A stretch of DNA of 64,000 nt, from assembly GCA_965237525.1 (NCBI GenBank), contig CBDEFO010000003.1, positions 192,001 to 256,000 of the forward strand, given 5' to 3'. Both the position numbers and the translations under genes were made by a program. Below are positions 7,690 to 56,775 of the stretch, piece by piece. The notes under the pieces are model-generated. The model saw only the letters and a list, made by a program, of their open reading frames with translations. It ran no database searches and was not told the DNA's origin. The stretch is from Candidatus Latescibacterota bacterium. GTDB taxonomy: Bacteria > Latescibacterota > CBDEFO01. Every line of letters begins with the position of its first letter. Position 1 is the stretch's first letter.

Positions 7690-8502
7690 TTAGCTGTTGT
7701 AAAACCTGATTTCGGGCATCCGTTCCCCGGTTAAATCGGGGATTAATCCCAGACGGGTACTATACCTAAAAAACTCTCTAAGTCCCTCAACCTCTCTGTC
7801 ACCGAGGATGTAATTTATCTTATTTTTTAGATAATCCTTGTAAACCTCCGATGATCCGGAATGATGCTGGGCGTATTCGGAGGATATTTCGTCTATATGA
7901 CCAGTTCCGACTTCTGCAGCCTGAATCAACGTTTGAACATCCTCTTTAGGCAGAGCGTCCCTGCGTCCCGACCAGAAGGCGTAGACAAAGGGGAGTCCCG
8001 TAAGCTCCGTCCACTCCTTTCCCATATCGAGTCTTGGGATCTCAGTCAGACTGTCCAGCACACTGTCTCCAATCATCAATGCTGCATCGGCTTTCTGGAG
8101 CATCGAATCCAGGTCAGGACGGCATCGTATAAAATGAGGCTCTATCCCGTATTTTTCCTTTAAAACGATCTTTGTCAACGCTTCAGACGATCTGGAATTT
8201 CTGTCAACCGCCACAGTTTTGATCTTGCCAATCTGTTCAATCTGTGGGGCAAAAACCCCCACGCTCCCTACAGGACCATACGAAGATATGCATATTTGGG
8301 GGACTATATGATAAGGGTCGGGACTCCTGGCGTACTCAATAGAAGGTATCAGGCCCACTTCGGTCTCGCCGCGCGCAAGTTTATCCGAACAGGCGGATGG
8401 AACGTCGTAGATAATTTGGAAGTCGTGACTGATCAGGCATCTTTCTAAAGCGTATAAAAGCGGCTTGGAATTTAGAAAACTTACAGCGCCTAAGACTGGC
8501 AT
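7690..8502 (-). CDS. mqnA: Chorismate dehydratase
   Basis: LGAVSFLNSKPL, LMIGD, DMGKEWTELTGLPFVYAFW. Confidence 0.93.
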   Translation of the reverse strand: MPVLGAVSFLNSKPLLYALERCLISHDFQIIYDVPSACSDKLARGETEVGLIPSIEYARSPDPYHIVPQICISSYGPVGSVGVFAPQIEQIGKIKTVAVDRNSRSSEALTKIVLKEKYGIEPHFIRCRPDLDSMLQKADAALMIGDSVLDSLTEIPRLDMGKEWTELTGLPFVYAFWSGRRDALPKEDVQTLIQAAEVGTGHIDEISSEYAQHHSGSSEVYKDYLKNKINYILGDREVEGLREFFRYSTRLGLIPDLTGERMPEIRFYNS

Positions 8503-9608
8503 CGCTCCTCGGAAGAATCTAATATCTGATATTTCGTATTCCTGCGGCGCGGCTCGTATCCCGCATCAGTTATAAGATGATGTATCTTCTCAATCGACAT
8601 TTGGAATCTGGTTCCTGCCGCACTCACCACGTTCTCCTCCATCATTGTGCTGCCGAAGTCGTTGACCCCGTACTTAAGCCCGATCTGAGCTATCTTCTCC
8701 CCTTGAGTTACCCACGACGCCTGAAAGTTGTCTATATTATCCAGCATAAGGCGTGCGATAGCTATGGTCCTCAGATAATCGTAGCCGGTGGCCTTCTTTC
8801 CGTTCCAGCCGCCGCTCCGGGCAAGCTCGGTTTCGTCCGGCTGAAAGCTCCACGCTATAAACGCCGTGAAACCTCCTGCTTCGTCCTGAAGCTCCCTTAT
8901 CCTCAGAAGGTGCTCCACGCGCTGTTCGTCGGTCTCCACCGACCCGTACATCATCGTCGCAGTCGTCCTTATACCTAAATTGTGCGCCGTTTGATGCACC
9001 TCCAGCCACTGTTGGGTCGTATCCTTCCTGAAGGCTATCTGATCCCGAACATCGTCGGATAAAATCTCCGCCCCCGCTCCGGGGATAGAATCCAGGCCTG
9101 CGTCCCTTAGCCTCTCTATCGTCTCTTTTATAGATAGGCGCGAGATATGGGCTATATATATAATCTCCGTGGCTGAAAGAGAATGTATATGCACGGGGAA
9201 GCGCTCTTTGATGGAGCTTAGCAGATCCTCATAGTAATCTATCCTCAACTTGGGGTTGAGTCCGCCCTGCATCAGGATTTCACATGAGTAGGGCTCGGCC
9301 CCCCCTACATCTACCAACTCCTGGATCTTGTCGAATATCTGTTCCTTTGAGAGCAGATATCCCTCATCAGATCCGGGGGGGCGGTAGAAGGCGCAGAAAG
9401 AACATCTCACCCAGCAAACATTCGTATAGTTGATGTTCCGACCAATATTAAAGGTCACCATCTTTTCGGGGTGCTTCTTGAGCCTCACATAATCGGCCAA
9501 CATTCCCAACTCCGGGAGGTTGTGATGCTTAAACAACCTGATGCCGTCTTTAAATTCCAATCTCTCTTGGGAGAAGACCTTTTCTGTTATATCTGAAATG
9601 TCTTTCAT
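8490..9608 (-). CDS. mqnC: Cyclic dehypoxanthinyl futalosine synthase (radical SAM)
   Basis: RNINYTNVCWVRCSFC, QASWVTQG, NDFGSTMMEENVV. Confidence 0.92.
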   Translation of the reverse strand: MKDISDITEKVFSQERLEFKDGIRLFKHHNLPELGMLADYVRLKKHPEKMVTFNIGRNINYTNVCWVRCSFCAFYRPPGSDEGYLLSKEQIFDKIQELVDVGGAEPYSCEILMQGGLNPKLRIDYYEDLLSSIKERFPVHIHSLSATEIIYIAHISRLSIKETIERLRDAGLDSIPGAGAEILSDDVRDQIAFRKDTTQQWLEVHQTAHNLGIRTTATMMYGSVETDEQRVEHLLRIRELQDEAGGFTAFIAWSFQPDETELARSGGWNGKKATGYDYLRTIAIARLMLDNIDNFQASWVTQGEKIAQIGLKYGVNDFGSTMMEENVVSAAGTRFQMSIEKIHHLITDAGYEPRRRNTKYQILDSSEERCQS

Positions 9609-9647
9609 AAGCTTTTCGCCTTATAGAGTAAACAGAGAATAGGGAAT

Positions 9648-9700
9648 GAGATTGCTTAGCTGACCCTTCGCTTCGCTCTGGGCTTCGGCTCGCAATGACG
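9648..9700. repeat. REP-like hairpin GAGATTGC...CGCAATGAC with a nested CCCTTCGCTTCGCTCTGGG palindrome
   Basis: The same outer arms recur at 48175-48222. Confidence 0.6.
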
Positions 9701-9769
9701 CCGTTTAGCTGGTTCATTGCGATGGGGACAAATACCCCGAAGAAATCCCCCATTGAAGCGTCAATAGAT

Positions 9770-10906
9770 TCAATTGGGGGTCGGGGACAAGGGAGGGGAA
9801 GCAGTGCCCTGTCTACTGTCTACTGGTTCATTGATCACATTATACATAGGATCACGCTCAGTTGGTTCACGTCCCGCCTCTGTTATCATATCTATCAACT
9901 GCTCACGCGTTAGTGCCTGTTCTTTTCGTCCATCCTCCGGACGCGTGATCTCGTACTCAACAATCGTCCCGTCTATGTCGTCAGACCCGTACCACAGTGA
10001 GAGCTGGGATACCTCGGGCGTCGTCATAATCCAGAACGACTTTACGTGATCAAAATTATCCAACATCAGACGGGCTAAAGCCACCTCCCTTAAATCCATA
10101 CATCCCGTCGGACCCGGAAGGTAGTCCAGCTCGGTGTTCTCAGGATGGAAGGAAAGTGGTATATAACTCAAAAATCCCCCTGTCTCGTCCTGAAGTTCCC
10201 GAAGTTTAATCAGATGCTCCACCTTTTCCTCAGGATACTCCATATGTCCGTAGAGTATCGTAGCGTTGGACTTCAATCCCACCTGATGCACAGAACGAGC
10301 CATACCGAGCCATTCGTCCGCCCCTATCTTCAGCGGAAAGAGCTCCTCATGCACGCGCTCTGTCATCACCTCTGCCCCCCCTCCGGGGACAGCGTCCATC
10401 CCCGCCTCTTTAAGCTCTAAGAGCGTCTCTTCCAGTGGTTTTTTGGCCACTCGCTCTATCTGGACGAGTTCCACCATTGTAAAGGCTTTCAGGTACGCAT
10501 CGGGCCGAATCTGTTTGATCGCCCTCAAAATATCCAGATAGTACTCGTACGGCAGTTTTGGATTGACACCTCCCACCATGTGTATCTCCCTGATAGGCAC
10601 GTCTATATGTTCTAATAGCGTGGCCTGAATCTCCTCTGGCGAAAGCGTATAGGCGTTTTCACCCTTCGGCACATCGTAGAACGAGCAGAACTTGCAGAAT
10701 TTGTTGCACACATTTGTGTAATTGAGATGTTGATTCCTGACGTAGTAAGCCCTGTTGCCGTTCTTCCGTTCCCGTACGATGTTAGCCAGATACCCGACGG
10801 CGCTTAAATCGTCCGACCTATAAAGCTGGGCACCGTCATCGAACGAAAGCCGCTCTCCCCCCATCACCTTTTTATATATATCCCCCAGTCCAGCCCCTTC
10901 TATCAT
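9770..10906 (-). CDS. mqnE: Aminofutalosine synthase (radical SAM)
   Basis: HLNYTNVCNKFCKFC, HVKSFWIM, DDIDGTIVE; likely start MIEGAG at 10906. Confidence 0.9.
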   Translation of the reverse strand: MIEGAGLGDIYKKVMGGERLSFDDGAQLYRSDDLSAVGYLANIVRERKNGNRAYYVRNQHLNYTNVCNKFCKFCSFYDVPKGENAYTLSPEEIQATLLEHIDVPIREIHMVGGVNPKLPYEYYLDILRAIKQIRPDAYLKAFTMVELVQIERVAKKPLEETLLELKEAGMDAVPGGGAEVMTERVHEELFPLKIGADEWLGMARSVHQVGLKSNATILYGHMEYPEEKVEHLIKLRELQDETGGFLSYIPLSFHPENTELDYLPGPTGCMDLREVALARLMLDNFDHVKSFWIMTTPEVSQLSLWYGSDDIDGTIVEYEITRPEDGRKEQALTREQLIDMITEAGREPTERDPMYNVINEPVDSRQGTASPPLSPTPN

Positions 10907-10929
10907 TCTTTCCCCGATTAAATCGGGGA

Positions 10930-12372
10930 TCAGATTCCCAGTTGTTCCCATATTTGATCTATCCTATCCTTTACCTCCCTGGACATTTCCATCACATCTG
11001 GCCACTCCCTCAGAAAACCCTCGTCCTTCCACTTCCTCGTAGCGTCAATGCCCATCTTCGTACCATAGTCCGGAAGCTGTGTCGCAAAGTCCAGAACGTC
11101 AGCGGGACCCTCGCTGAATACCACATCCCGCTTGGGATCAATATGAGTTCCGACCTTCCATACCACCTCCCTCAAGTCCTGAACATCGCAATCCTTATCC
11201 ACAACTATGATCACCTTTGTAAACATCAACTGTCCTAAACCCCACAGAGCATGCATCACCTTCTTGGCGTGTCCCGGGTATCTCTTGTCCATGGAGACTA
11301 TAGCCAGATTGTGGAAGATACCCTCTATAGGCAAATGCATGTCCACTATCTCCGGCACACTCGTTCTGACCAGCGGGAGGAAGAGCCGTTCTGTAGCCTT
11401 TCCCAGATAGCCATCCTCCATCGGAGGAGGTCCTACGATTATGGTCGGATATATGGGGTCACGCTTGTGCGTCACACAGGTCAGATGAAAGACTGGATAA
11501 TCGTCCTCCAACGAGTAGTACCCGGTGTGATCTCCGAAGGGACCCTCAAGTCTCCGCTCGCCTGGCTCCGTATATCCCTCGAACACGATCTGAGCGTTTG
11601 CAGGCACCTCTAAATCCACAGTCTTGCACTTTACAAGCTCCACTCGCTTCCTGCGCAGAAAACCGGCGAACATAAACTCATCTATCTCATCTGGCAGCGG
11701 CGCAGTCCCCGCGTAGATGGTAGCAGGGTCAGGCCCAAGGACAATTGCCACCTCAAGTCGCTGTCCCAACTCCTCTGCCACCCTGTAGTGTTGCGCTCCG
11801 CCCTTGTGCCTCTGCCAGTGCGCCCCGAGGGTGCGTTCGTCAAACACCTGAAACCTGTACATGCCCACATTGCGCGTGCCCAAGGTCGGATGCTTTGTAA
11901 TCACCTGAGGCAACGTAATATATCGTCCTCCATCTCCGGGCCAGCACTTGATGATAGGAAACTGGTCGAATGAGGGATTTTCGGTCTCAACCACCTCCTG
12001 ACATGCCCCTTTATTCACCGTCTTGGGGGCAAGATCGCCCAGACGCTTCAACTTGGGGAACATCTCCAGCTTTCCCATGAGCGTGGCGGGCACCTTCGGC
12101 TCCAGAAGCTCCTTTATCTCCCCGGCTATCGTCTCCAAACTGTCCGACTCCAGCGCCAGTACCATGCGCTCCATTGACCCAAACGTATTGATAAGCACAG
12201 GGACGCTGTGACCCTTCACGTTGGTAAACAAAAGAGCCGGCCCACCATTTTTGACCGTCCTATCCGCTATCTCACTGATCTCAAGCTCCGCGTCCACCTC
12301 CACGTCTATCACCTTTAGCTCATTTTTCTTTTTCAACGTCTCGACGAATTCGTTAAGATCTTTGTAAGCCAT
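10930..12372 (-). CDS. ubiD: UbiD-family menaquinone biosynthesis decarboxylase (MqnL-type)
   Basis: GGPALLF, RNVGMYR, EGPFGDHTGYY, KMGIDAT; start MAYKDL at 12372 with SD GGAGG. Confidence 0.95.
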   Translation of the reverse strand: MAYKDLNEFVETLKKKNELKVIDVEVDAELEISEIADRTVKNGGPALLFTNVKGHSVPVLINTFGSMERMVLALESDSLETIAGEIKELLEPKVPATLMGKLEMFPKLKRLGDLAPKTVNKGACQEVVETENPSFDQFPIIKCWPGDGGRYITLPQVITKHPTLGTRNVGMYRFQVFDERTLGAHWQRHKGGAQHYRVAEELGQRLEVAIVLGPDPATIYAGTAPLPDEIDEFMFAGFLRRKRVELVKCKTVDLEVPANAQIVFEGYTEPGERRLEGPFGDHTGYYSLEDDYPVFHLTCVTHKRDPIYPTIIVGPPPMEDGYLGKATERLFLPLVRTSVPEIVDMHLPIEGIFHNLAIVSMDKRYPGHAKKVMHALWGLGQLMFTKVIIVVDKDCDVQDLREVVWKVGTHIDPKRDVVFSEGPADVLDFATQLPDYGTKMGIDATRKWKDEGFLREWPDVMEMSREVKDRIDQIWEQLGI

Positions 12373-12415
12373 CTTTCCCTCCAAATACGGGTCCTGCTGA
12401 CTATCTACATAACCA

Positions 12416-12443
12416 AATATAACCATTTTAATCGGGTTGTCAA
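12416..12443 (-). promoter_or_regulatory. Putative sigma70 promoter of the mqn operon
   Basis: TTGACA-N16-TATATT on the minus strand. Confidence 0.5.
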
Positions 12444-12561
12444 TCTTTTGTATCTACTTTATGCAGATTGGGGATTGTCAGGTGTGCTGTTATAGCCATG
12501 AGAGGTAATCTCAAGCTTGTCCTCACGAAAGTGGGGAGCTGAACTAAATTGAGAATTTTTG

Positions 12562-12605
12562 TTGACATCTGTTTCATTTTCCCTTATCTTGTGACCTGTA
12601 TCACA
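12562..12605 (+). promoter_or_regulatory. Sigma70 promoter with an overlapping CRP/FNR-type box, copy 1
   Basis: TTGACA-N17-TATCTT; TGTGA-CCTGTA-TCACA at 12590-12605; near-duplicate at 46790-46833. Confidence 0.7.
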
Positions 12606-12792: not shown

Positions 12793-14311
12793 AAGCCTTG
12801 TGAAAAACCCTTAGATTCAGAAAGTAGTATAGAACAAGCATTGATAAAGCAGTTCCGATGTATTATATTATGTTATTGATAATATTATACATGGAGGAAA
12901 CAATGACCCCACAAAAGCAGGAACAGACAAATCCGATGTTTCACTATTTTCAGATGGAGGATTTAGTTCCCGAGGATCATATCCTTCGTCAGATTGATGA
13001 GGCAGTTGATTTTTCATTTGTACGAGACGTTGTATCAGATTGTTATTGCCCTGACAATGGCAGACCCGGTATTGATCCTGAATTAGTTGTTCGAATGATC
13101 CTTATTGGCTATCTGTATAATTTGAGTGAGAATCGGCTCTGTCAGGAAGTGGGGATGCATGCGGCATATCGGTTGTTTTGTCATCAGACATTTGATGATG
13201 CGGTTCCGGATAGGAGCACGATCAACAAGCTTCGCAATCACAAGTGGGCATCCAGTGGGTTGTTTGAACGGATAATGCGTCAGGTAGTCCAGTGTTGCAT
13301 AGATGTCGGTCTTGTGAGCGGTAAACACCTTAGTGTCGACGGCACTCAGATACAAGCTGATGCTTCAGTGAAAAGTATTGAGCCGATAGAACCCCCTGTT
13401 TCTCTTGATGATTATCTCAAGGGAATCGGTTTTGAAGGTGATAAGACAAAGGGTAGGTCCGGGCATCCTCAGGATAAAGACTTTTATGGTGAAAAGTGGA
13501 CGAACCAAACACACCGTTCGACTACAGACCCCGACGCGCGCTTATACAGCAAATCGAAGGGCAAAGGGGCTTTTCTCTCGTTTATGGGCCATGATCTGAT
13601 CGACACAAAAAGCAGAGTAATCCTTGAGACTCAGGGCACGCAGGCGACAGGGACAGCAGAGCCCGAAAGTGCCCTTAAGATGGTAGATGACCTTGAAACA
13701 TAGACCATGCCCAAAGACATTCAGACACTTAGTGCCGATACCGGTTACGGTTCTGGTAATTTTATCGCTGATGTACTTGACCGGGGAATCATACCCCATA
13801 TTCCTCTGCGAGCCGATGAGAAGATTGAACCGATTCCTACATGGAAAAACAAGACAAATCCAGCACATATTCAGGCCGAACGGGATAGAAAAGTGCGAGA
13901 GGCGAAAGCCAGAAATCATGCACGGTCTATCTCATTAACAGCTGACTACAAACTCTCCCGGAGACTCCGTAAACGCAGTGAACATATCTTTGCTGAAGCC
14001 AGGCAACAACACGGTATGGGACGAGCCCGTTACAGAGGACTAGCCTCACTGAATGAACAGTTGAATCTTGTTGCAACAGTACAGAATCTCAAGAGGCTTG
14101 TATCTTTCATAAGAAGGGGGAAAGCGTCTATGTGTGCCCTGTCTGTCAAAGACAGTGCATCCTGTTCTTCAAACAGCTCCTATTCCTTGCTGACCAGAAC
14201 TCTGATAAGACTATTTTGCTTATTCCACAGCAAAACGATACGATATGCTTCTCTTTGACCCATAATCGGCGCTTCAGACGCTGCCTGGGACATAACTATT
14301 TCACAAGGCTT
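12793..14311 (+). mobile_element. IS1182-family insertion sequence, 1519 bp
   Basis: 13-bp TIR AAGCCTTGTGAAA / TTTCACAAGGCTT; TTAA duplicated at 12789-12792 and 14312-14315. Confidence 0.9.
12903..14258 (+). pseudogene. IS1182-family transposase with an in-frame TAG at 13701-13703
   Basis: LVPEDHILRQID, GRPGIDP, VDGTQIQADAS, STTDPDA, then in the same frame ADTGY, RKRSEHIFAE. Confidence 0.88.
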
Positions 14312-15465: not shown

Positions 15466-15474
15466 GGTAAATGT

Positions 15475-16800
15475 ATGAAAAGGGTACTCGTCGTAAGCTA
15501 CTACTTTCCCCCGATGGGGCTTTCAGGAGTCCAAAGGACCCAGAAGTTTGTAAAATATCTGTCCCAATTCGGATGGCTCCCCACAGTCCTGACCATATCC
15601 CGGGCAGAATACTTAGCCTTTGACCCGTCTCTTTTGGATGAATTGCCCGAAGAAGTGGAGATTTTGAGGACTGCTTCTGCAGATGTCCTAAGCTTGATGA
15701 GTCTGCTAACTAATAATAGACAAGATAAGCAGGGTGGAATCGGAGTTGTTCCATCAGAAAGAGTTAGAGGTCTCTTTCACATGATGAGCCAGTTCTTCTT
15801 CATACCCGACAACAAGATAGGGTGGCTCCCATTTGCGCTATCGAAGGGAAACCGACTCCTTTTGAACGAACACTTTGATCTCATCTACTCATCGGCTCCG
15901 CCTTACACTTGTCACCTTATAGCGTGCGTATTGAGATCCCTTCGAGGCGCCCCTTTAGTCCTGGATTTCAGGGATGACTGGACGCAGAATCAGTTTATTG
16001 TCTATCCCACTTTTGTCCATAAGATTGCAAACGGCATGCTCGAAAGAGAGGTTCTCCAGAGAGCCAGCGCCATAATTGCGACCAACGAACTGATGTCTTC
16101 TAACCTCCAAAGGAGACATCCCCTTATAAAATCCGAAAGATTCAAGGTCATAAGCCACGGCTTTGATCCTGATGACTTTGGGAGGGCTGACCGTATCGAA
16201 AAAAAGTGCGACCCCCCGATTGAATCTATCGAGGGCAGGAAATTTACCATCACTTACACAGGTAGTTTCTACGAGCGGATAACGCCACTGTATTTCCTCT
16301 TAGCCCTCAGAGAGATCCTGGACGAAAATCCTGATTTTGCCGACAAGATTAAGGCACTCTTTGTCGGGATGTTCAGAAAGGAGAACGAAGAATTAGTCCA
16401 GAAGCTCAAGCTTCAGGATATAGTAGAAGTAATCCCTTACGTCAAGCACAGAGAAAGCGTAAATTACCTTATGGAGTCAGATCTTCTGTGGATGATGGTG
16501 GGGAGAGGTAAACTCAGCGAGACCATATCTGCAGGCAAGCTCTACGAATACATAGGTTCCCGAAAGCCTATACTCGCCTGCGTCCCAAGAGGAGGAGTTG
16601 ACGCTCGGGTCGTCCGCTCCACAGGCAACGGTATGGTGGTCCCTCCCGATGACGTACAGGCTATTAAAGAAGCCCTGCTTTCATACTATAGTAAGTATGC
16701 AGACGGACAACTTAGGCTTACTCCCGTTCATATAATAGAGAAGTATGATAGGAAAAGGCTAACGGAAGAATTAGCCAGAATATTCGACAGCTGCATTTAA
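15475..16800 (+). CDS. Glycosyltransferase family 4
   Basis: VSYYFPP.GLSGVQR, LDFRDDW, GKLYEYIGS; contains a palindrome copy (CDPPIESIEG). Confidence 0.9.
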   Translation: MKRVLVVSYYFPPMGLSGVQRTQKFVKYLSQFGWLPTVLTISRAEYLAFDPSLLDELPEEVEILRTASADVLSLMSLLTNNRQDKQGGIGVVPSERVRGLFHMMSQFFFIPDNKIGWLPFALSKGNRLLLNEHFDLIYSSAPPYTCHLIACVLRSLRGAPLVLDFRDDWTQNQFIVYPTFVHKIANGMLEREVLQRASAIIATNELMSSNLQRRHPLIKSERFKVISHGFDPDDFGRADRIEKKCDPPIESIEGRKFTITYTGSFYERITPLYFLLALREILDENPDFADKIKALFVGMFRKENEELVQKLKLQDIVEVIPYVKHRESVNYLMESDLLWMMVGRGKLSETISAGKLYEYIGSRKPILACVPRGGVDARVVRSTGNGMVVPPDDVQAIKEALLSYYSKYADGQLRLTPVHIIEKYDRKRLTEELARIFDSCI

Positions 16801-20826: not shown

Positions 20827-20978
20827 CTTCTATTTCCTAAAATTAGCAGACAGTAGACAGGGACATCTCCTCCTCTACCTTGAGATTGTCCCCGATGGAG
20901 CCCCCGATAGATTCAATCGGGGGTCAGGGGGAAACAATCTCACTTAGACTGTCTTTCCCTGTTTGCTGTCTACTTTTC

Positions 20979-29920: not shown

Positions 29921-32428
29921 TCATCGTTGAGCAAGAGGATTCAACAACACCGATACATTATCGTCGGAAGAATTGGCGACAGCTATGTCATTATGCCCAT
30001 CGCCGTCTACATCCGAAATGAAAACTGAATACGGACGATTCCCTGCACCGTAGTCTACTTTGCGTGTGAATGTCCCGTCTCCACGATTCAATAACACCGA
30101 TACATTATCGCTGCCCTTATTGGCCACAACTATGTCATTATCACCATCACCATCCAAATCCGAAATGAAAACTGAATAGGGGCCATCCCCAGCAGCATAG
30201 TCCACCCTATCTGCAAATTGCCCATCTCCGTTATTCAATAGTACTGATACATTATCGCTGAAAACATTTGCCACAGCCAAGTCATTATCACCATCCCCAT
30301 CTAAATCAGCACTGAACACCGAACGGGGATCAGCTCCTGTGCTATAGTTCATCTTATCTGTAAATTGCCCATCTCCATTGTTCATCAACACCGATACACC
30401 ACTCTTGACGCTCCCTGCATTTGTTACAACTAAGTCCTTGTCGCCATCGCCATCCAAATCTGCGCCGAATACTGAGTAAGGGTCGTTACCAGCGGCATAG
30501 TCCACCTTATCTATAAATTGTCCATCTCCATTATTCAGCAGCACTGACACAGTACCGCTCTTTTTATTAGCTACAGCTATATCGTTATCCCCATCCCCGT
30601 CTAAATCGGAAATGAAAACTGACATGGGTTCATCCCCAACGGCATAGTCCACTTTATCAGCAAATTGCCCATCTCCATTATTTAGCAACACTGACACATT
30701 ATCGCTGTTCTGATTAGCTACCGCCAGGTCGTTATCTCTATCTCCATCTAAATCCGAAATGAATACTGAGTGGGGACCATCCCCAACTGCGTAGTCAGCC
30801 TTAAGATCAAAGATAGCAGGAATATGAATAAAACCAAATCCGCCAGGGAGTCTGTCTGTGGGACCATCGGGCTTAGTGGCTATCACATCCACAGTATCCG
30901 AAGGATGAGCGGGAATCTCAGCAGTGATGGTATCAAGGGGCACGGCTACGTCCCAAGCTGAGGTATCTTCGAAAACGAAAATTGCATGGAGACTATCCTC
31001 GAGGGCATGGTCAACCTGAAGCTCAGAGATAGAAGGAGTGTCAACAGAAGAAGTTCCACTGAGGAGCGTGTCTGCGAGACTATGGGGTTCTGTGGCTGTT
31101 ACATCTACGGTGTCAGAAGGATCAGCGGGAGTCTCAGCAACTATGGTATCAAGGGACACGGCTACATCAGTAACCACACTATCCTGGAAAGCAAGCGTTG
31201 CTTCACGGTGCATAGTGCTATCTGCAATGGCCTCAGGTATGCCACTTAATTCTGTGTCTTGCGCTCGATTGATCCCCGATAGACTCAATCGGCGATCGGG
31301 GGTGGGACTAACAGATGTCACAAGAGTAGCAGAGAGGTTCAAAAGCACTGACACATTATGGCTCTTTTGGTTAGCCACAGCCAAGTCGTTATCACCATCG
31401 TCATCTAGGTCCGAAATAAATACTGAATGAGGACTATCTCCAGTAACATAGATCCCCGTAAGCGCAAATTCCCCATTTCCATTATTCAACAGTACCGATA
31501 CACTATTGTTGCTATTAGCTACAGCCAGGTCATTATCCCCATCGCTATCTATATCCGAAACGAATAATGAACGGGGACTACCTCCAGCCTTATAGTCCGT
31601 TTTTGCTGCGAATTTTCCATCTCCATTATTCAGCAGTACTGACACGTTATCGCTCCTCTCATTAGCCACAGCTAAGTCATTATCGCCATCGCCATCGAAA
31701 TCCGAGATGAAAACTGATGAGGGACTACTCCCAGCATCATAGTCCACCCTATTAGCAAATGCGCCGGCTCCATTGTTCAACAAGACCGATATAGTACCTC
31801 TGATGAACCCAGCATTAGCCACAGCTAAGTCCCTGTCGCCATCTCCGTCTAAATCCGCACTGAAGAGTGATATGGGTTCAAATCCAACGCCATAGTCCAC
31901 CTTGTCTGAAAATGTTCCGTCTCCGTTGTTCAACAGCACCGATACACTGTTGCTGCCCGCATTAGGTGCGGCTAAGTCATTGTCCCCATCGCCATCCAAA
32001 TCCAAACTGAATATTGAACGGGGATTGATTCCAACGGCATACTCCATAGCGTCTGCAAATGTCCCGTCTCCCTTATTCAACAATACAGACACGTTATCGC
32101 TGAAGCCATTAGCTACAGCCAGATCGTTATCTTTATCTGCGTCCAAATCCACGCTGAAAACTGAAAGAGGTTCAAATCCAGCGGCATAGTCCACCCTGGC
32201 TGAGAATGTCCCATCTCCGTTGTTCAACAGTACCGATATGCTATCACTGTTTGCATTAGTTATCGCTAAGTCACTATCGCCATCCCCATCCAAATCCGCA
32301 CTGAATACAGAATGGGGACCATCCCCAGCATCGTAGTCGGTCTTGAGTCCGAAAAGGCCTTGCGAAGAAGCAGGCGCATTCAAGGCGACTAACAGGATCA
32401 GAGCAGTATATAAGATATCTTGTCTCAT
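29921..32428 (-). CDS. Secreted FG-GAP/VCBS repeat protein; two repeat blocks joined by an acidic linker with an internal duplication
   Basis: Signal peptide; many DLDGDGDNDLAVAN...VSVLLNNGDG units. Confidence 0.9.
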   Translation of the reverse strand: MRQDILYTALILLVALNAPASSQGLFGLKTDYDAGDGPHSVFSADLDGDGDSDLAITNANSDSISVLLNNGDGTFSARVDYAAGFEPLSVFSVDLDADKDNDLAVANGFSDNVSVLLNKGDGTFADAMEYAVGINPRSIFSLDLDGDGDNDLAAPNAGSNSVSVLLNNGDGTFSDKVDYGVGFEPISLFSADLDGDGDRDLAVANAGFIRGTISVLLNNGAGAFANRVDYDAGSSPSSVFISDFDGDGDNDLAVANERSDNVSVLLNNGDGKFAAKTDYKAGGSPRSLFVSDIDSDGDNDLAVANSNNSVSVLLNNGNGEFALTGIYVTGDSPHSVFISDLDDDGDNDLAVANQKSHNVSVLLNLSATLVTSVSPTPDRRLSLSGINRAQDTELSGIPEAIADSTMHREATLAFQDSVVTDVAVSLDTIVAETPADPSDTVDVTATEPHSLADTLLSGTSSVDTPSISELQVDHALEDSLHAIFVFEDTSAWDVAVPLDTITAEIPAHPSDTVDVIATKPDGPTDRLPGGFGFIHIPAIFDLKADYAVGDGPHSVFISDLDGDRDNDLAVANQNSDNVSVLLNNGDGQFADKVDYAVGDEPMSVFISDLDGDGDNDIAVANKKSGTVSVLLNNGDGQFIDKVDYAAGNDPYSVFGADLDGDGDKDLVVTNAGSVKSGVSVLMNNGDGQFTDKMNYSTGADPRSVFSADLDGDGDNDLAVANVFSDNVSVLLNNGDGQFADRVDYAAGDGPYSVFISDLDGDGDNDIVVANKGSDNVSVLLNRGDGTFTRKVDYGAGNRPYSVFISDVDGDGHNDIAVANSSDDNVSVLLNPLAQR

Positions 32429-34281: not shown

Positions 34282-34401
34282 GAAAATCTACTGGATATTT
34301 GGAGTGAAAATCTTTATCTTTATGTTTATTCCCGATTGAATCTATCGGGGATCAATATTGAATATAACAAGATAGATGATATAGAGTCAAGGGGATACTC
34401 A

Positions 34402-37923: not shown

Positions 37924-40900
37924 ATGACTTTGACGAGATACAGAAAGATGCCCTATACAGGGCGGAAGAGAATGCCCTGTCTCCCCCGATTGAATCTATC
38001 GGGGGCTACTGTCTACTGTCTACTTATGATAGCAGTTCTGGTTGTAGCGACTGCAGCGCCCGGGATCGTTAGGGCTCAGGACATTTTGTTATCACAGTTT
38101 TCTCAGAGCTTTGGAAAGAATAAGATTCAGTATAAGAATTTCCAGTGGTGGAAGTTGAAAACGGAGCATCTGGAAATCTACTACAATCCCGAGTATCTTG
38201 GCCTTGCCCTCTCAGCAGCAGAGATACTTGAGGATGGCTACGAGAAGATCAGCCGAAGCCTTCACCATGACCTTTCGACCGTTCCTCCGATCATTATCTT
38301 TCAGTCTCACTACGAGTTTGAACAGACGAATATAGTGCCCTATATCCTGCCTCCGGGCGTTGGCGGGTTCGCCGAGAGCCTGAAGTTTAGGGCCGTCATC
38401 CCGTTCAACGGAGACCTGGAGGATTTCAGGAGCGTTCTGGTCCATGAGTTGACTCATCTTTTTCAGTATGATATTCTGTACAAGGGGCCTGTAAAGTCCC
38501 TGACCAATAGAATCAATTCCCCGCCAACCTGGATCATGGAGGGGATGGCGCAGTACGAGGCGGGCGACATGAACGATGTGGATGAGATGGTGCTAAGAGA
38601 CGCTGTGCTGACGAATACTGTAATACCCATAAAGTCTTTGGACAATTTCCAGGCGGTAAGGAATGTGTTTTTAGCGTATAAACAGAGCCACTCTCTGATG
38701 CAGTATATATCGCAGGAGTACGGTGAGGATAAAGTTGGAAGAATCTTACGGGACTGGAAAGGGAGCACGGGAACAGGGCATACCATAAAAAGAGTCTTGG
38801 GTACGGACATTCAAACTTTAAGCGACAGTTGGTCTTCCCATGTGCGCAGAAAGTATTGGCCATTGCTCACCGAAAGGAAGTATAACTTCGAAATAGCAAA
38901 GGAAGTCCCGGCAGAAGAGGTTTCGTACTTAAGTCCAAGCGGGTCCCTTGGCGGGGAGATGTTGGCAGTCGTATCTACAGATGGTATTTCCTTCAATATT
39001 GACCTGATACGGGTAAAGGACGGAGAGCTGATGGAGCGAATAACAGAAGATATGAAGACTTCTGTCTATACAGATCTGAAGGTGGAAGAAGGTTGTGTGG
39101 CGTGGTCTCCTGACGGGCAGTACATAGCTTTCATAGCCAGAAAGGGACCTTCCGATTTGGTACTCGTGTGGAATGTCTATAGATCTGAGCTGATGGATGT
39201 GTTGAAGGTGGAAGGTGTTCAGGAAATATCCACCTTGGCCTGGGCGCCTGATAACAGGAAATTGGCATTTTCGGGTTCAAGCCGCGGCCAGACGGACATA
39301 TATATACTGGATATAAAGACAAAAGCTTCCACAAAGTTGATGCATACTGCCGATCGCGAGTCTCAGCCTTCGTGGTCTCCAGATGGGAGCAGACTTGCGT
39401 TCAGCTATAGGACCAACGGAAGTGTCGATCTTATGGTCTATGATTTTGAGCTGACAAAGGTGCAAAAGATAGTTTCTGGAAAGTCGGACGAGACCTGGCC
39501 CCGGTGGTTCCCTGACGGTGCAAGATTGCTTTTCGTATCGAACAGGGATGGCATAAATGATCTTTTTGTCTTGGACCTTGAAAGCAAAAAAGAAAGCAGA
39601 CTGACCAAGACTATAAGCGGACTCTCCAATCCGTCGATTTCTCCGGATGGAAAAAAGATAACGTTTGCCTCTTACTACAACGGTAGAAGGAAGATCTACG
39701 TGATGGATGTCCCATCACAAGAAGAGCTGGCCTTAACGGATGATGAAAAAGACGCGCAGAAATATGAGACACCTGCTGCAGACGGTGGTGAGATGATCTT
39801 ATCGCTGCACGTCAAGGAGGAAGAGAGCAATGGTGATTATGATAAGGTGAATGTAGATGATGATGGAGACCATGCATCCCCGATAGATTCAATCGGGGAT
39901 AGCCTGAAGGTAAGGACAAAGTACAAAAGGAGCAGATATAAACCGAGTCTTCAATTAGATGGAATCAGCGCTCAGCTGTCCTTATCTAACAACTTCTTCG
40001 GCACTGTAGCCCAGATTTCGTTCAGCGATCTTATGGGAAATCATAACCTGGGAATAACGACGGATTTCGTCTCAGGGTTTACAAGCTATGGAAGGCTTAA
40101 TGACCTCAACTTTGCGGTCATATATGGATATTACGGAAGGAGGACGAACTTAGACTTCGGGATCTTCAGCTGGACGCAATATTTCACAGATTCTAAGAGT
40201 CGCTTCTTGGATTTGAGGACCGGCAGGTTGATGCGTGCTCTGGGGTCCGACAGGCAGTCCGGGCTATTTGCAAGGATGACCTATCCGATAGATCTATATC
40301 GGAGAGTGGAATTTAAATATACGTTTGTGGATCAGAACAGGGAATTTGTGTTCCCGGAGAAGGAGAGGATTGAAAAGAAAACCACGCATCTTTTCCAGAC
40401 TGTCTATGTAAACGACTCCGTAGAGTACGGTTGGCTGGGGCCTTCAAGGGGCAAGAGGTTCTACCTCTCCGCCGGTCAGGCGGTAAAGTTCACAGAGGGC
40501 CACAGGCAATTTACCCATCTGGACGCGGACTTAAGGTTCTACGCCGGCAGGAACTCCGTCTTTGCTTTCAGACTCAAGGGACTCGCATCTTTAGCAAAGG
40601 ACGGTATAACGCACTTTCTGGGCGGTCCAAACATAGCCACGATTTTTGGATTCGGACACGAGGTGAACGTTGGGCCTCTGAGGGGCTTTGATTTCAGCGA
40701 GTTAGCAGGGACCAGGTTATTTCTTATGAACATGGAGTACAGAGTTCCCTTTGTGAGGAATCTGACGCTCGGATGGCCCGGGAATATCTCTCTTGGAGGT
40801 CTGATGGGCACAGTCTTTACAGATGTGGGGGTGGTCTGGAATGAGGGCGACGATGTAAAGCTATGGACGACGGACGGAGAATTCAGACTCAAGGACCTGA

Positions 40901-48052: not shown

Positions 48053-48449
48053 TAGTAAACAGCACACGTAAGTAGACAGCATATTTGTAGGGTCGAGCTT
48101 TTCTCCACCCAATGGTCGGGTAACCCAGCCTTTACACGATAGGTGATACGTAGAAGAGAAGGTGCCCTGCCTACGAGATTGCTTCCCCCCGATAGATTCA
48201 ATCGGGGGTCGCTCGCAATGACACGGTGTACTTTTGCCTTCGATCATTGAGAGGGGTGGAACCCCGACTCCGTCAGGAGTTACGACCCCGAGGAGACGCG
48301 AAGCGGAACCAGAACCAAGCTCAAAGACTTTTTTCTAATGAAAAGTAATCAGTAGGGGCGAGCTCATGTGTTCGCCCAGTAGGTAGGGGACACATCCTTC
48401 TCCCTATTTGCTAACAGAACAGGCCCCTCCCCATAACAGGAGTGTAGAG

Positions 48450-51400: not shown

Positions 51401-52934
51401 CATAGCTGAGAACGGCAGAAGGAGTTTGGAGTACGTTCACTCATTTACGGTCGGAAACGCCCCTCCGGTTGCCGTGGACGATACCGTAACCACGCCTGAG
51501 GACACGTCGATTGTAATCGCTGTGCTTTCCAACGATTTTGACGTGGCCGGAGACACGCTCAAAGTCCACTCGGTCGACACGACCGGCACTGAAGGAAGGG
51601 TCGTCGTCGATCCCGGCGATACTACGGTAGCCTATACGCCCAAGGCCGACTTCAACGGTATAGACACGTTCGAGTACGTGCTAACAGATGGCGCACTGAC
51701 TGACACAGCCACGGTCACGGTGACAGTGGAACCGGTGAACGACGCGCCGGGGGACTTTCTCCGGCTCTTGCCCGCAGACAGTAGCCTCGTCCAGCTCGAT
51801 TCTGTCCTTTTCCTCTGGACAGCAGCGTCCGATGCGGACAGGGATACGGTGGAATATACGATAAATATCTCCTTCGCTCAGATCGATACGAGCTTTGTCG
51901 TGGAAGACACGATGTTAGCGGTCTATTTCCGAACGTTTGAGCTGCCCAAGGCCCAGCTTCCTGTGACGTGGTTGGTAGTCGCCTCAGATGGCATCGTGAC
52001 CTCCGGTCCGACCAATGGAAACGGGAACTTTACTTTGAACACGCCACTCCTGTTCGGCGATGTATCGGGCAACGGGGAGATCACCTCCTTCGATGCGGTG
52101 CTGATCTTGCAGCATACGGTGGGGCTGATCACACTGACGGATCCCTTTGCCCGCGTTGCAGATGTCTCCGACAACGGCAGGATCAGTGCCTTTGACGCCG
52201 CTTTGGTGCTGCGCTTTGTCGTGTCGGCTATCCCGTGCCTCCCGGCTGACCCAGACTGTGGAGTATTAGCTAAGGGGAAAGCCGTTGCAGGCACACTTGC
52301 CTGGTCAGAGACTCGGTCAGGAGATGTGCCCGGACACGTCGATCTGCCGATCGTGTGGGACAGTGAGATGGGAGATGTGATCTCCGCACAGTTCACCGTG
52401 CAGATCGACACGAGTTTTGCAAAGGTAGTAGATGTGGTTTCGAACCTTCCGGAGGACTGGCATATGGTGCATAGTTTCTCCCACGGTGAGCTAAAAGTGG
52501 CGATGGCTGGTCTCACACGTATATCTGACGCACGCTTAGCTACGCTCCGGTTGCTGATGAGCGAACGGGAGGCAGAGGTGACGATTCGCGGTGTAGGGTC
52601 AGTGAACGAGGAGTTGGAGCAGGAGTTGGGAGCTGCAAGGGTCCGGTATGTCCCGAAGGAGTACGCGCTGGAGCAAAACTATCCCAATCCATTCAATCCC
52701 CAGACTGTGATCCGTTACGACCTTCCTGTTGGAAGTCACGTTACCTTATCTGTCTTTAACATAGTGGGACAGAAAGTTGCCACACTGGTGAATGAGGAGA
52801 TGGATGGAGGCAGTTACTCTATCGTCTGGGACGGTAAAGATCATAGTGGAAGGAGCCTTGGCAGCGGAGTCTATCTGTATCGGTTAGAGACAGATGGGTT
52901 TGTTCAGATAAAAAAGCTGGTGTTGATGAGATAG
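48450..52934 (+). CDS. Large secreted repeat protein (12 EYYIDTDPG repeats + Ig/cadherin-like + dockerin + cohesin-like + FlgD-type CTD) with an in-frame TGA at 49596-49598
   Basis: The two ORFs are in the same frame; 225/228-bp tandem units; TGA replaces the TGG found in every other repeat. Confidence 0.85.
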
Positions 52935-53112
52935 GATCCGTTCAAAAGAGATAATATCTTGTAGCTAAGGTAGACTATCCTCGGAGATAGGAGGCGATGC
53001 AAAAATATCTTGATTTTCGGATCAGTTTGGGGTATATTGTTACCTAAATGAGATCGTCACCTGATAGATAATCGTGTTTTTTTAATTTGCATCATAGTCA
53101 AGGAGATAGATT

Positions 53113-54939
53113 ATGTACGGATGGACAGGAAAGATTCTGCGCGTTGACCTTACGCGCGGCACGTGGCAGGTTGAGGATGTGCCGAAAGCGTGGATGCGCG
53201 ATTTTGTCGGCGGACGCGGGCTGGCGGCCAAGTACCTATACGAGGAGATGGACCCTATGGTGGACGCTTTAAGTCCCGAGAATAAATTGATTCTGGCTAC
53301 GGGTCCCCTTACTGGCACGCCCGTCTCCTGCGGTGCGCGCTATATGGTCGTGACCAAGGGGCCTTTGACAGGGGCTATTACCACATCCAACTCCGGCGGA
53401 CACTGGGGACCGGAGCTCAAGTTCGCAGGTTACGATATGGTCATCGTAGAGGGGAAGGCACAAAAGCCGTCCTACATCTTCATCTACGACGACCGCGTGG
53501 AAATACGCGATGCCAAGAACGTATGGGGCAAGACGGTCTCTGAGACTGAAGACCTTATCCGTGCGGAATTGGGCGTTCCGGGCACGCGTGTGACGGGCAT
53601 AGGCCCTGCAGGAGAAAATCTCGTTCGGTTCGCCTGCATTATCAACGACAAGCACCGTGCGGCGGGGCGCTCCGGTGTGGGCGCCGCTATGGGTTCCAAG
53701 AACCTGAAGGCTATCGCCGTGCGGGGCACAAAAGCTGTCAGGGTCGCGCGCCCTGAGGATTTTATGCGCTCTATGTGGGACTTTGCCCAAAAGCTTGCCA
53801 AAAGCCAGGAGCGAGCAGGCCTGACAGAATTAGGCACACCTCCGACTATCGATCTTGTCAACGCCTTCGGCGGCCTTCCGACGCGCAACTTTCAGGAGGG
53901 ACAGTTCGAGCAGGCGGACAACCTCAATGGCAACAGCATCAAAGACCAGCGGCTTGTAACAAATAAAGCCTGTTTTGCGTGCAATATCGCCTGCGGGCGA
54001 GTGACGCAGTTGGGGGACGGATCGGGCAAGTTCCTGGTCAACACTCACCCGCGCAACTGGGACGTAGCCGGCGAAGGCCCCGAATACGAGACGGTCTGGG
54101 CGCTCGGCGCAGATACGGGTGTGGGTGACCTGGACGCGGTGATCAAGGCTAACTTCCTTTGCAATGATCTGGGTATGGACCCCATCTCGATGGGTGCGAC
54201 ACTTGCCGCTGCGATGGAACTCTACGAGAAGGGCTTCATCAATGACTCGATGGTTGAAATTCCCCTGGAGTTCGGAAGCGGCGACGCCCTGGTGCGTATG
54301 ACAGAGGCGACGGGCTACCGAGAAGGCTTCGGAGACGAACTTGCCCAGGGTAGCAAACTCATGACGGAAAAATTCGAGCATCCCGAATTCTTTATGGGCG
54401 TCAAGGGCCAGGAATTTCCGGCTTATGACCCGCGGGGTTTCCAGGGCATGGGAGTCGCCTATGCCACCTGCAACCGCGGCGCATGCCACATTCGAGCCTG
54501 GACGCCCGCTGTAGAGGCGTTAGGGGATATGGACCCGCATACGACCGAGGGCAAATCCAAATGGGTAGTAGACGAGCAAGATAGGACGACGGTGCACGAT
54601 GCGACGGGTATCTGCCTGTTCATCACAGCGGGCTCTTCGCTTGAGGACCTCCTGCCCTGCCTTATAGGAGCTACAGGTATCGATTACACCTGGGACGACT
54701 TCGTCAAAGCCGGTGAGCGCATCTGGAACATCGAGCGCCTTTGGAACCTCAAAGCGGGGCTGACTTCCAAGGACGATACCCTGCCCAAGCGTCTGATGAC
54801 CGAGGCGCACAAATCGGGACCGTCGGAGGGCGTCACCGTCAAGTTAGACCAGATGTTGCCCGAGTACTACGAAGAGCGAGGCTGGACGCCCGACGGAGAG
54901 CCGAGGGAGGAGAAACTTGTGGAGCTGGGACTGATGTAA
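53113..54939 (+). CDS. aor: Aldehyde:ferredoxin oxidoreductase (tungsten AOR family)
   Basis: GKILRVDL, RAAGRSGVGAAMGSKNLKAI, CFACNIAC, GPEYE, RGACH, DATGIC. Confidence 0.93.
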   Translation: MYGWTGKILRVDLTRGTWQVEDVPKAWMRDFVGGRGLAAKYLYEEMDPMVDALSPENKLILATGPLTGTPVSCGARYMVVTKGPLTGAITTSNSGGHWGPELKFAGYDMVIVEGKAQKPSYIFIYDDRVEIRDAKNVWGKTVSETEDLIRAELGVPGTRVTGIGPAGENLVRFACIINDKHRAAGRSGVGAAMGSKNLKAIAVRGTKAVRVARPEDFMRSMWDFAQKLAKSQERAGLTELGTPPTIDLVNAFGGLPTRNFQEGQFEQADNLNGNSIKDQRLVTNKACFACNIACGRVTQLGDGSGKFLVNTHPRNWDVAGEGPEYETVWALGADTGVGDLDAVIKANFLCNDLGMDPISMGATLAAAMELYEKGFINDSMVEIPLEFGSGDALVRMTEATGYREGFGDELAQGSKLMTEKFEHPEFFMGVKGQEFPAYDPRGFQGMGVAYATCNRGACHIRAWTPAVEALGDMDPHTTEGKSKWVVDEQDRTTVHDATGICLFITAGSSLEDLLPCLIGATGIDYTWDDFVKAGERIWNIERLWNLKAGLTSKDDTLPKRLMTEAHKSGPSEGVTVKLDQMLPEYYEERGWTPDGEPREEKLVELGLM

Positions 54940-54984
54940 GAACGAACAGAAAAGTTGCGGCGTTCTGCCTCAGTATACTGTAGC

Positions 54985-56286
54985 GGTTATTTATCAAATG
55001 AAATCGGTGCACTTCTCTTTCGATCTTTGATTGATCTTGAATGATAGGTTTTCGACAATCTTTGGTTTCTGTTCTTTTTCAAAATGGATGTATAATTGTT
55101 CTTCTTTTAGGTTCCATTCAGCCAGGACAAAGTAGTTGGTGTAAGAGGAGGGAAGAGATACTTTCTCATTTAGGACATCGATAAAGGCTTTATCTGTCTG
55201 TTCTGTGTCCTGTTTGACTTGTCTGATAAAATAGGTCTTGGGAATGAAATCTTTCTCGTTTGACTTCTCTTGCTTAGGTGGACGGTAGCCGGTGTATCTC
55301 TGTGATGAAAGATTAAACCATTCTAACTTCTGATCAACTTCTTGTAAGCTTTTGAACTGAATTCTGTTCCAGAACTTCCTTGAAAATACAGAATTGTTGC
55401 CTTCTATAGATGCTTGAGAAAAGGGCCTTCTGGGAACGGCAAATATCGGAATCACTTGATTTTTCAAGAGAAACTGCATTGCTTTGCTGACATTCCTTTT
55501 ACCTGAAACACTGCCAATAGTCGCCGAGCAATTGTCCACCTTAACGAAATCTGGTTTTTCAAACCTGTCAAAGAAAGACTGACACTTCTCGATAAAGTTA
55601 GTTGCTGTTTGACCGTCAACCCGCCGAAAATACCTTAACTTAGGCTCTTTCTTAAAGGAAAATCCAACGAAGTTGACCGGCTCAGTTCTGCCGGTAAGAT
55701 ACTTTTTACCAATAAAGTCTGATTCTAGGACTCTGCCTCCTGAAAGATAGTAAATGGTATACTCTGGATAACAAAGATAACGAGATGCACCCTTGTTTTT
55801 ACCTTTCTTCCTTCTCTGGGAAAGTCCTAAATCTGAAAGCATTCTGCCGATAGTCGGCAACGACGGAGGAGGGGTGCTAGAATATCGATTCCTCCATTCT
55901 TGTTCAATAACAGTGGCTCCTGAATAGAACTGATAAGGATCGTCCTCTAAGCTATGGTAAATCTCTTTGATTCTCTGTTCGTCAACTTTAGCCAATTTTC
56001 GCCTTTTTCCTTTTGGCCAACCCCGATTATCCATGGCAAAATCCTGATCCAGAGATTTAGTCCAAGCCGTAACGAAATCATTGGAAACTCTCGCTTGTTT
56101 GATAACTTCTCGCTTTGACATTTCTTTCTTAAAATACATCTCGTTGACTTCTTGTCTTAATACGGCCAATCTCTCTTTGTCCATAGGACTCCGTAGATTA
56201 AAGTTAAGACAATCAACTCAACTTAATCTACTAATACTCTAAACAAAGATCAAATTAGGTGCACCGATTTCATTTGATATTCAACC
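54985..56286 (-). mobile_element. Insertion sequence, 1302 bp, copy 2
   Basis: Same TIRs, length and protein as 243-1544; flanks TGTAGC / GGTAGC. Confidence 0.95.
54994..56184 (-). CDS. Transposase identical to 252-1442
   Basis: Identical 396-aa translation. Confidence 0.88.
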   Translation of the reverse strand: MDKERLAVLRQEVNEMYFKKEMSKREVIKQARVSNDFVTAWTKSLDQDFAMDNRGWPKGKRRKLAKVDEQRIKEIYHSLEDDPYQFYSGATVIEQEWRNRYSSTPPPSLPTIGRMLSDLGLSQRRKKGKNKGASRYLCYPEYTIYYLSGGRVLESDFIGKKYLTGRTEPVNFVGFSFKKEPKLRYFRRVDGQTATNFIEKCQSFFDRFEKPDFVKVDNCSATIGSVSGKRNVSKAMQFLLKNQVIPIFAVPRRPFSQASIEGNNSVFSRKFWNRIQFKSLQEVDQKLEWFNLSSQRYTGYRPPKQEKSNEKDFIPKTYFIRQVKQDTEQTDKAFIDVLNEKVSLPSSYTNYFVLAEWNLKEEQLYIHFEKEQKPKIVENLSFKINQRSKEKCTDFI

Positions 56287-56461
56287 GGTAGCCACTGGGC
56301 GACTGTCAAAGAGATGGTCGCCCTTTTTCCTATGCTCAACCATTATCCTCGCACTACAGAGTCGTTGCAGTTTGATACATACTTGCCAAGGAGGCTTGAA
56401 ATGCGAGGGACAATTTTACACATTTCCCTGGCGCTGTTGTCCCCGATTGAATCTATCAGGG

Positions 56462-56775
56462 ATCAACCTCCTGCTCCTTCGGATCCTTGCGACCACGCCG
56501 AGACTTCAGGCTCTCCTGGCCTCCTTCTAAGAAACTATCACGCCAAGCATACGCCTGCTACTGGCTGATTCCATTCTTCCGACATACTTCCGATACATCC
56601 ACTCCTTTCAAAAGAGTCAGCACCACCTCTGCCTTTCGGGTCACCGTCCAGCGCTTACTATCTTTCACTTCGGGGCTTGACACTTTGACCTCCTTTCCCC
56701 GATAGTATCACTCGGGGACAAGCCTCAAACCCCAATTTGCAAAATATTTGTCGCTCTGTCAAGGGGAGCGGTATG
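56462..56775 (-). pseudogene. IS3-family OrfA remnant with a probable left end
   Basis: SD AGGAGG, GTG 56683: MSSPEVKDSKRWTVTRKAEVVLTLLKGVDVSEVCRKNGISQ*QAYAWRDSFLEGGQESLK; TIR-like TACCGCTCCCCTTGACAG near 56757-56774. Confidence 0.7.

Follow-up and report, generated by a model that had tools for sequence, protein, structure and literature searches.

A mobile 23-nt hairpin that mostly stands in place of four host bases in a Candidatus Latescibacterota genome

The genome of a Candidatus Latescibacterota bacterium (assembly GCA_965237525.1) carries a very short palindromic repeat, which a first-pass annotation had noticed in a 64,000-nt stretch of contig CBDEFO010000003.1 (positions 192,001 to 256,000 of the forward strand; hereafter the window). 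The repeat is a 23-nt hairpin that is real and mobile, and it mostly stands in place of four host bases, with a net gain of 19 nt. We give about even credence to the view that the hairpin is inserted copy by copy as a single strand, at paired nicks lying four bases apart on opposite strands, by an enzyme acting in trans. The host genome (G000; 4.58 Mb in 8 contigs) was compared with a congeneric genome (G001; 4.54 Mb in a single contig, 98% complete). The alignment tiled 2.8 of the 4.54 Mb of G001, with 87-95% identity over the pieces of the window.

Copy number and structure of the element

The 21-nt core of the element, CCCCGATAGATTCAATCGGGG, had 13 strand-matches with up to 3 mismatches in the window and none in 100 shuffles. 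Counted over the whole of G000, as the first-pass annotation had suggested, the core was present in 117 exact copies, 464 copies within 2 mismatches and 603 within 4, while a triplet-shuffled 2.03-Mb contig used as the control for this count gave no match. Contigs C2 (~11.7-25 kb) and C4 (~542-555 kb) of G000 contain near-identical gene sets in inverted order, reflecting duplication or assembly redundancy; consequently, the copy counts are slightly inflated.

Conservation ended one base beyond the core on both sides. Since this outer pair covaried (T-A in 207 and C-G in 148 of 462 de-duplicated copies), the unit was taken to be 23 nt long, and it folds into a hairpin with an 8-bp stem and a 7-nt loop. 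Compensated stem variants recurred among the same 462 copies (16 A-T and 7 T-A beside 397 G-C), but these came from related copies and represent few independent events. Their spread suggests that the stem matters for the movement of the hairpin. The shorter-loop variant reported earlier was recovered as a 19-nt form with 35 copies within 2 mismatches genome-wide. One loop subfamily had a constant CAGG tail in 27 of its 62 copies and also occurred as tandem 27-mers. A local cluster of this tailed subfamily, including tandem 27-mers, was seen within repeated spacers at G000:C8:739900-752700. Tiny palindromes with other sequences, a number of them ending in CCTG/CAGG, adjoined the 23-nt family or stood in tandem with it (loci L226, L146, L068:11505 and G000:C6:441249-441300).

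Mobility and insertion junctions

Comparison of orthologous sites showed that 49 of 249 unique long copies of G001 were missing in G000 and that 55 of 261 unique long copies of G000 were missing in G001, some of these differences being larger indels; around 80% of the mapped unique loci were common to both genomes. Twelve further G001 loci yielded one empty site, a larger indel. An IS3-type gene of G000 was present as 10 filled, 1 garbled and 3 empty alleles. The polarity of insertion was established where the empty allele restored the host consensus, as in the IS3-type gene, the heptamer arrays and older copies of the element, and insertion is presumed at the other sites.

The junction counts covered uniquely mapping loci (30 of 279 and 36 of 297 loci mapped to several places and were set aside) and empty sites with at least 12 of 16 flank matches. 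Among the 59 filled/empty rows with both flanks intact, the replaced stretch measured 4 nt in 19, 3 nt in 12 (one event carried by a host repeat accounts for 8 of these) and 5 nt in 5, while 4 nt were gained in 6 and the rest were scattered. Copies nested in older copies replaced exactly TAGA/TCTA in 33 of 48 cases, and nested long copies were found in both relative orientations (14 vs 15). Within GTAGACA arrays, 4 (mod 7) nucleotides were replaced in 21 of 27 cases, with GTAG preceding 25 of the 27. Thus, self-nesting and heptamer arrays, which are two independent read-outs, agree on a 4-nt replacement.

A minority class gained bases without this loss. Four-nucleotide direct repeats, all of the form Y-N-N-R, flanked 32 of 708 copies compared with 4.8 after shuffling (maximum 14), and the net gain of 27 nt in this class was made up of the 23-mer with either a 4-nt tail or the 4-nt direct repeats. 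The flanks of 327 non-nested copies were two-fold symmetric: YYNR preceded 123 of them and YNRR followed 116, against a background of 12.6%. Both junctions were enriched directly 3' of the loose YYNR motif, and the same site accepts the hairpin in either orientation.

The 2-bp target duplications proposed in the first-pass annotation were not supported by counting, since two-base direct repeats around the 21-mer were found in 54 of 355 copies compared with a mean of 70.9 after shuffling within the outer-pair class. The apparent AT duplications consist of the element's own outer T/A together with a flank preference for a purine before and a pyrimidine after it. One filled/empty pair (L068:11908) fits a 2-nt AG/CT duplication with a net gain of 25 nt, although the surrounding 7-mer array makes -2 and +5 indistinguishable. 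These results bear on the idea of a micro-sized miniature inverted-repeat transposable element (MITE) that a resident DDE transposase moves, duplicating a short target of fixed length. Insertion sequences (IS) are plentiful in the genome, with 154 and 56 ORF (open reading frame) copies in two families, and a 4-nt duplication class does exist. However, the 2-nt duplication was not enriched, the modal event deletes target bases, and the ends of the four multicopy IS-like families examined showed no resemblance to the element, their target patterns also being different. A micro-MITE is largely refuted already by the empty sites and is now very improbable.

Copies within genes and the question of host function

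The element was depleted in coding regions. Simple ORF calls of at least 150 aa, which cover 78% of the genome, held 156 of 638 copies, 72 of them internal. Within these long ORFs, 16 of 17 indels were multiples of three (two nested sites each being counted from both genomes), compared with 25 of 82 intergenic indels. The earlier expectation of a net insertion of 23-25 nt was not borne out, as the mode between genes was +19 nt (17 of the 82 events) and the values inside genes were 15, 18 or 27 nt. The in-frame excess in ORFs, set against the spread between genes, indicates that selection filters the outcomes: the basic +19 event is out of frame, so genes keep +15, +18, +21, +27 and similar lengths. 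Judging from the reading frames, nothing about the in-gene copies would call for splicing or ribosomal bypass. The first-pass proposal of a minimal non-autonomous mobile element is therefore upheld by presence/absence at orthologous sites, by the filled and empty IS3-type alleles and by the in-frame coding indels, although the mover was not found.

No bias toward either transcribed strand was found (150 sense vs 153 antisense), nor any leading/lagging bias by skew strand, the latter being a weak test because G001 lacks a clean two-replichore GC skew. Divergent-promoter spacers contained 55 of 421 intergenic copies while making up 19.5% of the spacer DNA, which shows no promoter preference. Inspected by eye, genes flanked on both sides by copies resembled housekeeping or transposase genes. 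A functional host signal at fixed places, such as an operator, a terminator or an uptake sequence, would account for a conserved palindrome and for the large share of unique loci common to both genomes. The presence/absence variation between G000 and G001 contradicts the fixed operator, which had been named as the alternative to mobility. Moreover, the palindrome originates through indels, and copies of it are found inside one another as well as within IS genes and repeat arrays; the promoter, orientation and ORF figures above point the same way. As an origin of the family, a host signal is refuted and has hardly any probability left, though single copies may have been put to use later.

Proposed mode of insertion

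From the junction statistics, which are direct observations, we infer paired nicks, a single-stranded donor and an enzyme. Each strand would be opened 3' of (Y)YNR, with the exposed 3' ends receiving the hairpin. Four bases would be lost if the nicks lay 4 nt apart and left 5' overhangs; a 4-mer shared by both strands, with a nick at each side, would be duplicated; and host repair would complete the insertion. The hairpin itself would have no regulatory function and would ride along as a selfish or neutral element.

Several junction data weigh against this proposal. The motif was present on both sides in only 48 of the 327 non-nested copies. The replaced 4-mer resembled the element ends (41 of 64 letters, P=0.0014 vs shuffled labels; central CG in 10 of 16) in rows that include paralogous pairs, and such resemblance also fits copying by microhomology. 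In two host families the 23-mer plus C took the place of TCGT, and 9 nt were replaced in a repeat of the G041 group (Deltaproteobacteria). Finally, a single fixed site of the restriction type does not account for both classes, since the half-sites beyond the duplicated 4-mers were unlike those of the +4 class.

Enzyme-free copying was considered as well. A free RNA or single-stranded DNA hairpin, or another genomic copy, would template gene conversion or microhomology switching and overwrite end-like target bases, which resembles the model proposed for the small dispersed repeats (SDRs) of Nostoc. The end resemblance just described supports this idea, as does the fall in identity to 0.73-0.85 beside the junctions compared with mostly 0.88-1.0 further out (26 events), and none of eight tested enzyme families was common to all carriers. 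On the other hand, the commonest target, TAGA/TCTA, shares 1-2 of 4 letters with the ends and yet is replaced precisely in both orientations. The two-fold symmetry of the flank motif and the even split between transcribed strands also speak against it, and no reverse transcriptase was found in G000. The RVT_1 family was present in G001 only, where two reverse transcriptase genes were seen (C1:3678513-3678905 and 3731598-3732140). Taken together, enzyme-free copying is the chief rival of paired nicks, possible but doubtful.

A REP-like unit, named after repetitive extragenic palindromes (REPs), could instead be moved by an HUH enzyme (RAYT/TnpA-Y1) that peels it off and pastes it in 3' of a tetranucleotide; the true element would then be the tailed form of 27 nt. 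The constant CAGG tail, the tandem 27-mers, the net +27 insertions without target loss, junctions that follow a 4-nt motif, and the GTAG-type REPs in the genome are all in keeping with this. However, peel-and-paste does not delete target bases, and no leading/lagging bias was found. The co-occurrence with RAYT/Y1 envisaged in the first-pass annotation was absent, with Y1_Tnp (PF01797) in 0 of 2 Latescibacterota genomes, G000 and G001. In a 40-genome panel of small metagenome-assembled genomes (MAGs) whose completeness is not shown, PF01797 was present in 13 of 16 carriers of the hairpin and 18 of 24 non-carriers, indicating no clear association. Movement by an HUH enzyme is thus unlikely.

Distribution and a longer parent-like repeat

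Among 40 relatives in the phylum, the motif was found in one, the congeneric G001, with 318 matches of up to 1 mismatch. Outside the phylum, the matches listed included exact copies in several Deltaproteobacteria MAGs, one Thermodesulfobacteriota MAG and one contig labelled archaeal. This last copy (L194) lies on a short contig labelled as a Nanoarchaeia MAG and could reflect transfer or mis-binning. A looser pattern was present in 16 of 61 genomes around one of these MAGs, and the exact main form was not found in viral contigs.

A longer repeat, whose 8-bp stem is AT-started and which has a TGTC/CGTC foot and a CCA tail, contains a one-base loop variant of the element as its inner 23 nt. This parent-like repeat was seen in 7 viral contigs, in more than 122 metagenome loci and in Deltaproteobacteria MAGs, which also carry free copies of the hairpin. 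Of 82 matches at 80 metagenome loci, 15 combined the CCA tail with the exact outer pair, and 40 were a TT..AA variant. The foot and the CCA tail give the repeat the anatomy of CGTC REPs as outlined in passages of PMC3733652. The element as such had a CGTC/TGTC foot in 1 of 603 and 1 of 380 copies and a TGAC tail in 1 of 603. None of the 82 parent-like repeats matched the published degenerate SRM pattern, which as coded also missed a positive control beside the Ssn-like gene of G000. The 23-nt element may, more tentatively, be the stripped core of a CGTC-type REP, and either of the two could have come first.

Search for the mover enzyme

If the element is such a stripped core, the Ssn/GIY-YIG class would be the likeliest source of its mover. 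In the passages of PMC11893778 concerned, CGTC-type NTS repeats of Neisseria are cut as single-stranded DNA by the GIY-YIG nuclease SsnA. Accordingly, our tentative candidate for the specific mover, though on balance an unlikely one, is a small single-strand nuclease of the REP type, present only at times. In the same passages SsnA cuts upstream of its hairpin, not at the base of the stem, and no joining activity is described. Further evidence against it, and against an enzymatic insertion in general, came from the searches. No enzyme could be tied to the hairpin. Small GIY-YIG genes were found in G000 only, among 5 genomes, and thus not in G001, and in the 40-genome panel they were present in 8 of 16 carriers (10 with fragments) vs 9 of 24 non-carriers, again without a clear association. 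In G000, the repeat flanking the Ssn-like gene differs in its loop. An Ssn-like ORF lay within 700 nt of the parent repeat in 0 of 80 loci, whereas the hidden Markov model found 3 of 3 control GIY-YIG ORFs, and 13 small GIY-YIG loci carried repeats other than this one.

The Ssn-like gene of G000 is a lone 107-aa GIY-YIG gene at G000:C4:478393-481614 (L200:1415-1767), situated between two inverted CGTC-type repeats in an NTS-ssnA-NTS layout. It also sits between two similar copies of the neighbouring stretch. As for the other families, four-helix-bundle/IVP genes were present in 3 of 5 genomes (none in G000, a stop-containing copy in G001), DUF559 in 2 of 5, PDDEXK_3 in 1 of 5 and IS110 in 2 of 5, and Y2_Tnp was found in 0 of 5, though the controls were likewise blank and the count is thus uninformative.

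Beyond these candidates, the family may point to a pathway that has not been described, in which an enzyme acting as a dimer, perhaps with base pairing as its guide, would paste a single-stranded hairpin of 19-27 nt between two nicks four bases apart, exchange four target bases and spread the same hairpins across phyla. We regard this as speculative. If true, such a paste pathway would be the missing mover of SDRs, of CGTC-REP cores and of the tiny in-frame palindromes of uncultured bacteria.

Copies in the window

All 12 copies listed in the first-pass annotation were found at their positions and read out in context. Pfam matches agreed with its gene labels: MqnA (PF02621), two CofH/MqnC-type radical SAM genes, GT4, FG-GAP and Omp85. 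The peptides IPDLTGE (MqnA), PPIESIEG (GT4) and SPIDSIGD (Omp85), said to be encoded by copies, were present in the sequence. What had been overlooked is that the copies at 9758, 20901 and 31273 are nested in older ones.

A 19-nt short-loop copy at 7724..7742 (no strand assigned) encodes IPDLTGE in the C-terminal tail of mqnA. According to the nesting analysis, an older copy at 9746..9787 (minus strand) is split by a younger 23-nt copy at 9758..9780 (plus strand), which replaced its TCTA. The younger copy is an A-T stem variant with a worn left arm and, as proposed, supplies a stop codon, that of the radical SAM ORF 9770-10951. A second 19-nt copy, at 10911..10929 (no strand assigned), lies right after the stop of a ubiD-family gene and probably upstream of the true radical SAM start. 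On the minus strand, its G-rich run ends 5 bases before an ATG, so that the radical SAM gene may owe its ribosome-binding site to this copy.

The GT4 gene contains a 27-nt in-frame insertion (the 23-mer plus 4 nt) at 16213..16239 (minus strand), and the site is empty in G001. The 27 letters were also missing in sequencing runs X5 and X8, which come from one public sample, and present in X2; the sample lacking the insertion may be the source of G001. Read in context, an older intergenic copy at 20889..20930 (minus strand) is split by a younger 23-nt copy at 20901..20923 (plus strand), which is common to G001. So are the copies at 31273..31295 (plus strand), inside the FG-GAP gene and within remnants of an older copy, and at 34329..34351 (minus strand), before an SSF transporter domain. 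The SSF Pfam match begins at residue 98 of the ORF holding the latter. It is probable that the copies at 10911 and 34329 lie in over-extended N-termini and not in true coding sequence.

A 23-nt copy at 37983..38005 (minus strand) stands in a GTAGACA heptamer array at the N-terminus of an Omp85-family ORF and is common to G001. Another, at 39877..39899 (plus strand), encodes SPIDSIGD in a linker of the Omp85-family protein; in G001 a nested 19-nt copy replaces its TAGA, with a net gain of 15 nt in frame. The copy at 48186..48208 (plus strand), within a GTCATTGCG-type (CGTC-class) host repeat, and the intergenic copy at 56440..56462 (minus strand) are both common to G001. Finally, a loop-variant copy with a CAAG tail, the 27-nt form, occupies 56696..56722 (plus strand), and a paralogous site (L102:10167) is empty, the net difference being 27 nt.

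Two abundant mobile elements also occur in the window. An IS of 1.3 kb, whose 396-aa ORF matched nothing in Pfam, is present at 252-1442 and 54994-56184 and belongs to the family with 56 ORF copies. It targets heptamer arrays; 25 of 43 sites show a 6-bp duplication, and TA and A/T positions hardly vary in both flanks. The 1.5-kb DUF772 transposase element at ~12793-14286, of the family with 154 ORF copies, is one we take to be IS1182-like. Its copy in the window is split by a stop at 13703, which other strains lack.

Relation to known repeats

The element works like the Nostoc SDRs but may not be one of them. Elhai et al. reportedly described, in 2008, SDR1-8 of Nostoc punctiforme as repeats of ~21-27 nt with compensatory hairpins, nested in themselves, in heptamer arrays and in mini-transposons. 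The 23-nt element is likewise a short dispersed unit in many copies, with a compensated stem-loop, and nests in itself, in heptamer arrays and in mini-transposons; SDRs, too, are not known to have a dedicated enzyme. However, its host belongs to Ca. Latescibacterota, not to the Nostocaceae, its exact 21 letters recur outside the phylum as given above, and the 4-nt replacement rule and symmetric YYNR flanks were measured in this family. According to passages of the sources concerned, SDR5 inserts precisely in HIP1 (PMC4390886) and SDRs among HIP1-rich cyanobacteria were reported from Nostocaceae only (PMC5861425); SDRs are also mentioned in citing passages of PMC2884548 and PMC3116915.

The analogy with Rickettsia palindromic elements (RPEs) drawn in the first-pass annotation stands as regards in-frame residence in protein-coding genes, while the Nostoc SDRs and the CGTC-REP hairpin are closer. 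RPEs are about 100-150 nt long. The 19-27-nt element is some five times shorter, and the families of RPE described in passages of PMC3733652 (RPE-1 and others) are from Rickettsia. With the CGTC-tagged REPs or NTS-SRM repeats associated with Ssn, including dRS3, RPE-4 and RPE-6 (passages of PMC3733652 and PMC11893778), the element has the loop-variant core in common, and both reside inside genes. Unlike them, it lacks the foot, the outer A-T pair and the tail, has a loop of 7-9 nt instead of 4-5, and occurs as singlets or nests, not as head-to-head dimers, with no adjacent ssn gene.

The GTAG REPs and REPINs with RAYT (passages of PMC3116915 and PMC3733652) are similarly short, dispersed, non-autonomous and mostly extragenic. 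In contrast, the element itself lacks a GTAG foot, RAYT was not found in either host genome, and target bases are lost; GTAG precedes 20 of 616 main-subfamily copies and, where checked, is derived from heptamer targets. Yeast mitochondrial GC clusters (passages of PMC4478555) are also small, GC-rich, mobile palindromes with a constrained stem whose mover enzyme is not known, but they are flanked by AG/ACT direct repeats, whereas the rule here is target loss. A MITE would have a fixed target duplication and share terminal repeats with a resident IS, and neither was seen, the latter among the four multicopy IS-like families examined. Thus, the element fails the defining tests for a GTAG-REP/RAYT system, a MITE and a footed CGTC REP. 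No description of the 23-nt family was found in the open literature searched; subscription journals lay outside this scope, and Elhai et al. may already describe the replacement of target bases.

Tiny nested mobile palindromes are already known from Nostoc, and the element adds no category of its own. It bears on the question of how repeats 20-30 bases long move and offers a measurable signature: four target bases lost or 4 nt duplicated, a target motif that is symmetric, and a self-target that is hit precisely. Candidate enzymes can be assayed for this signature in vitro or on plasmids. The element is probably among the smallest jumping DNA elements, and the family steadily supplies insertions of 5-11 residues to the proteins of its lineage.

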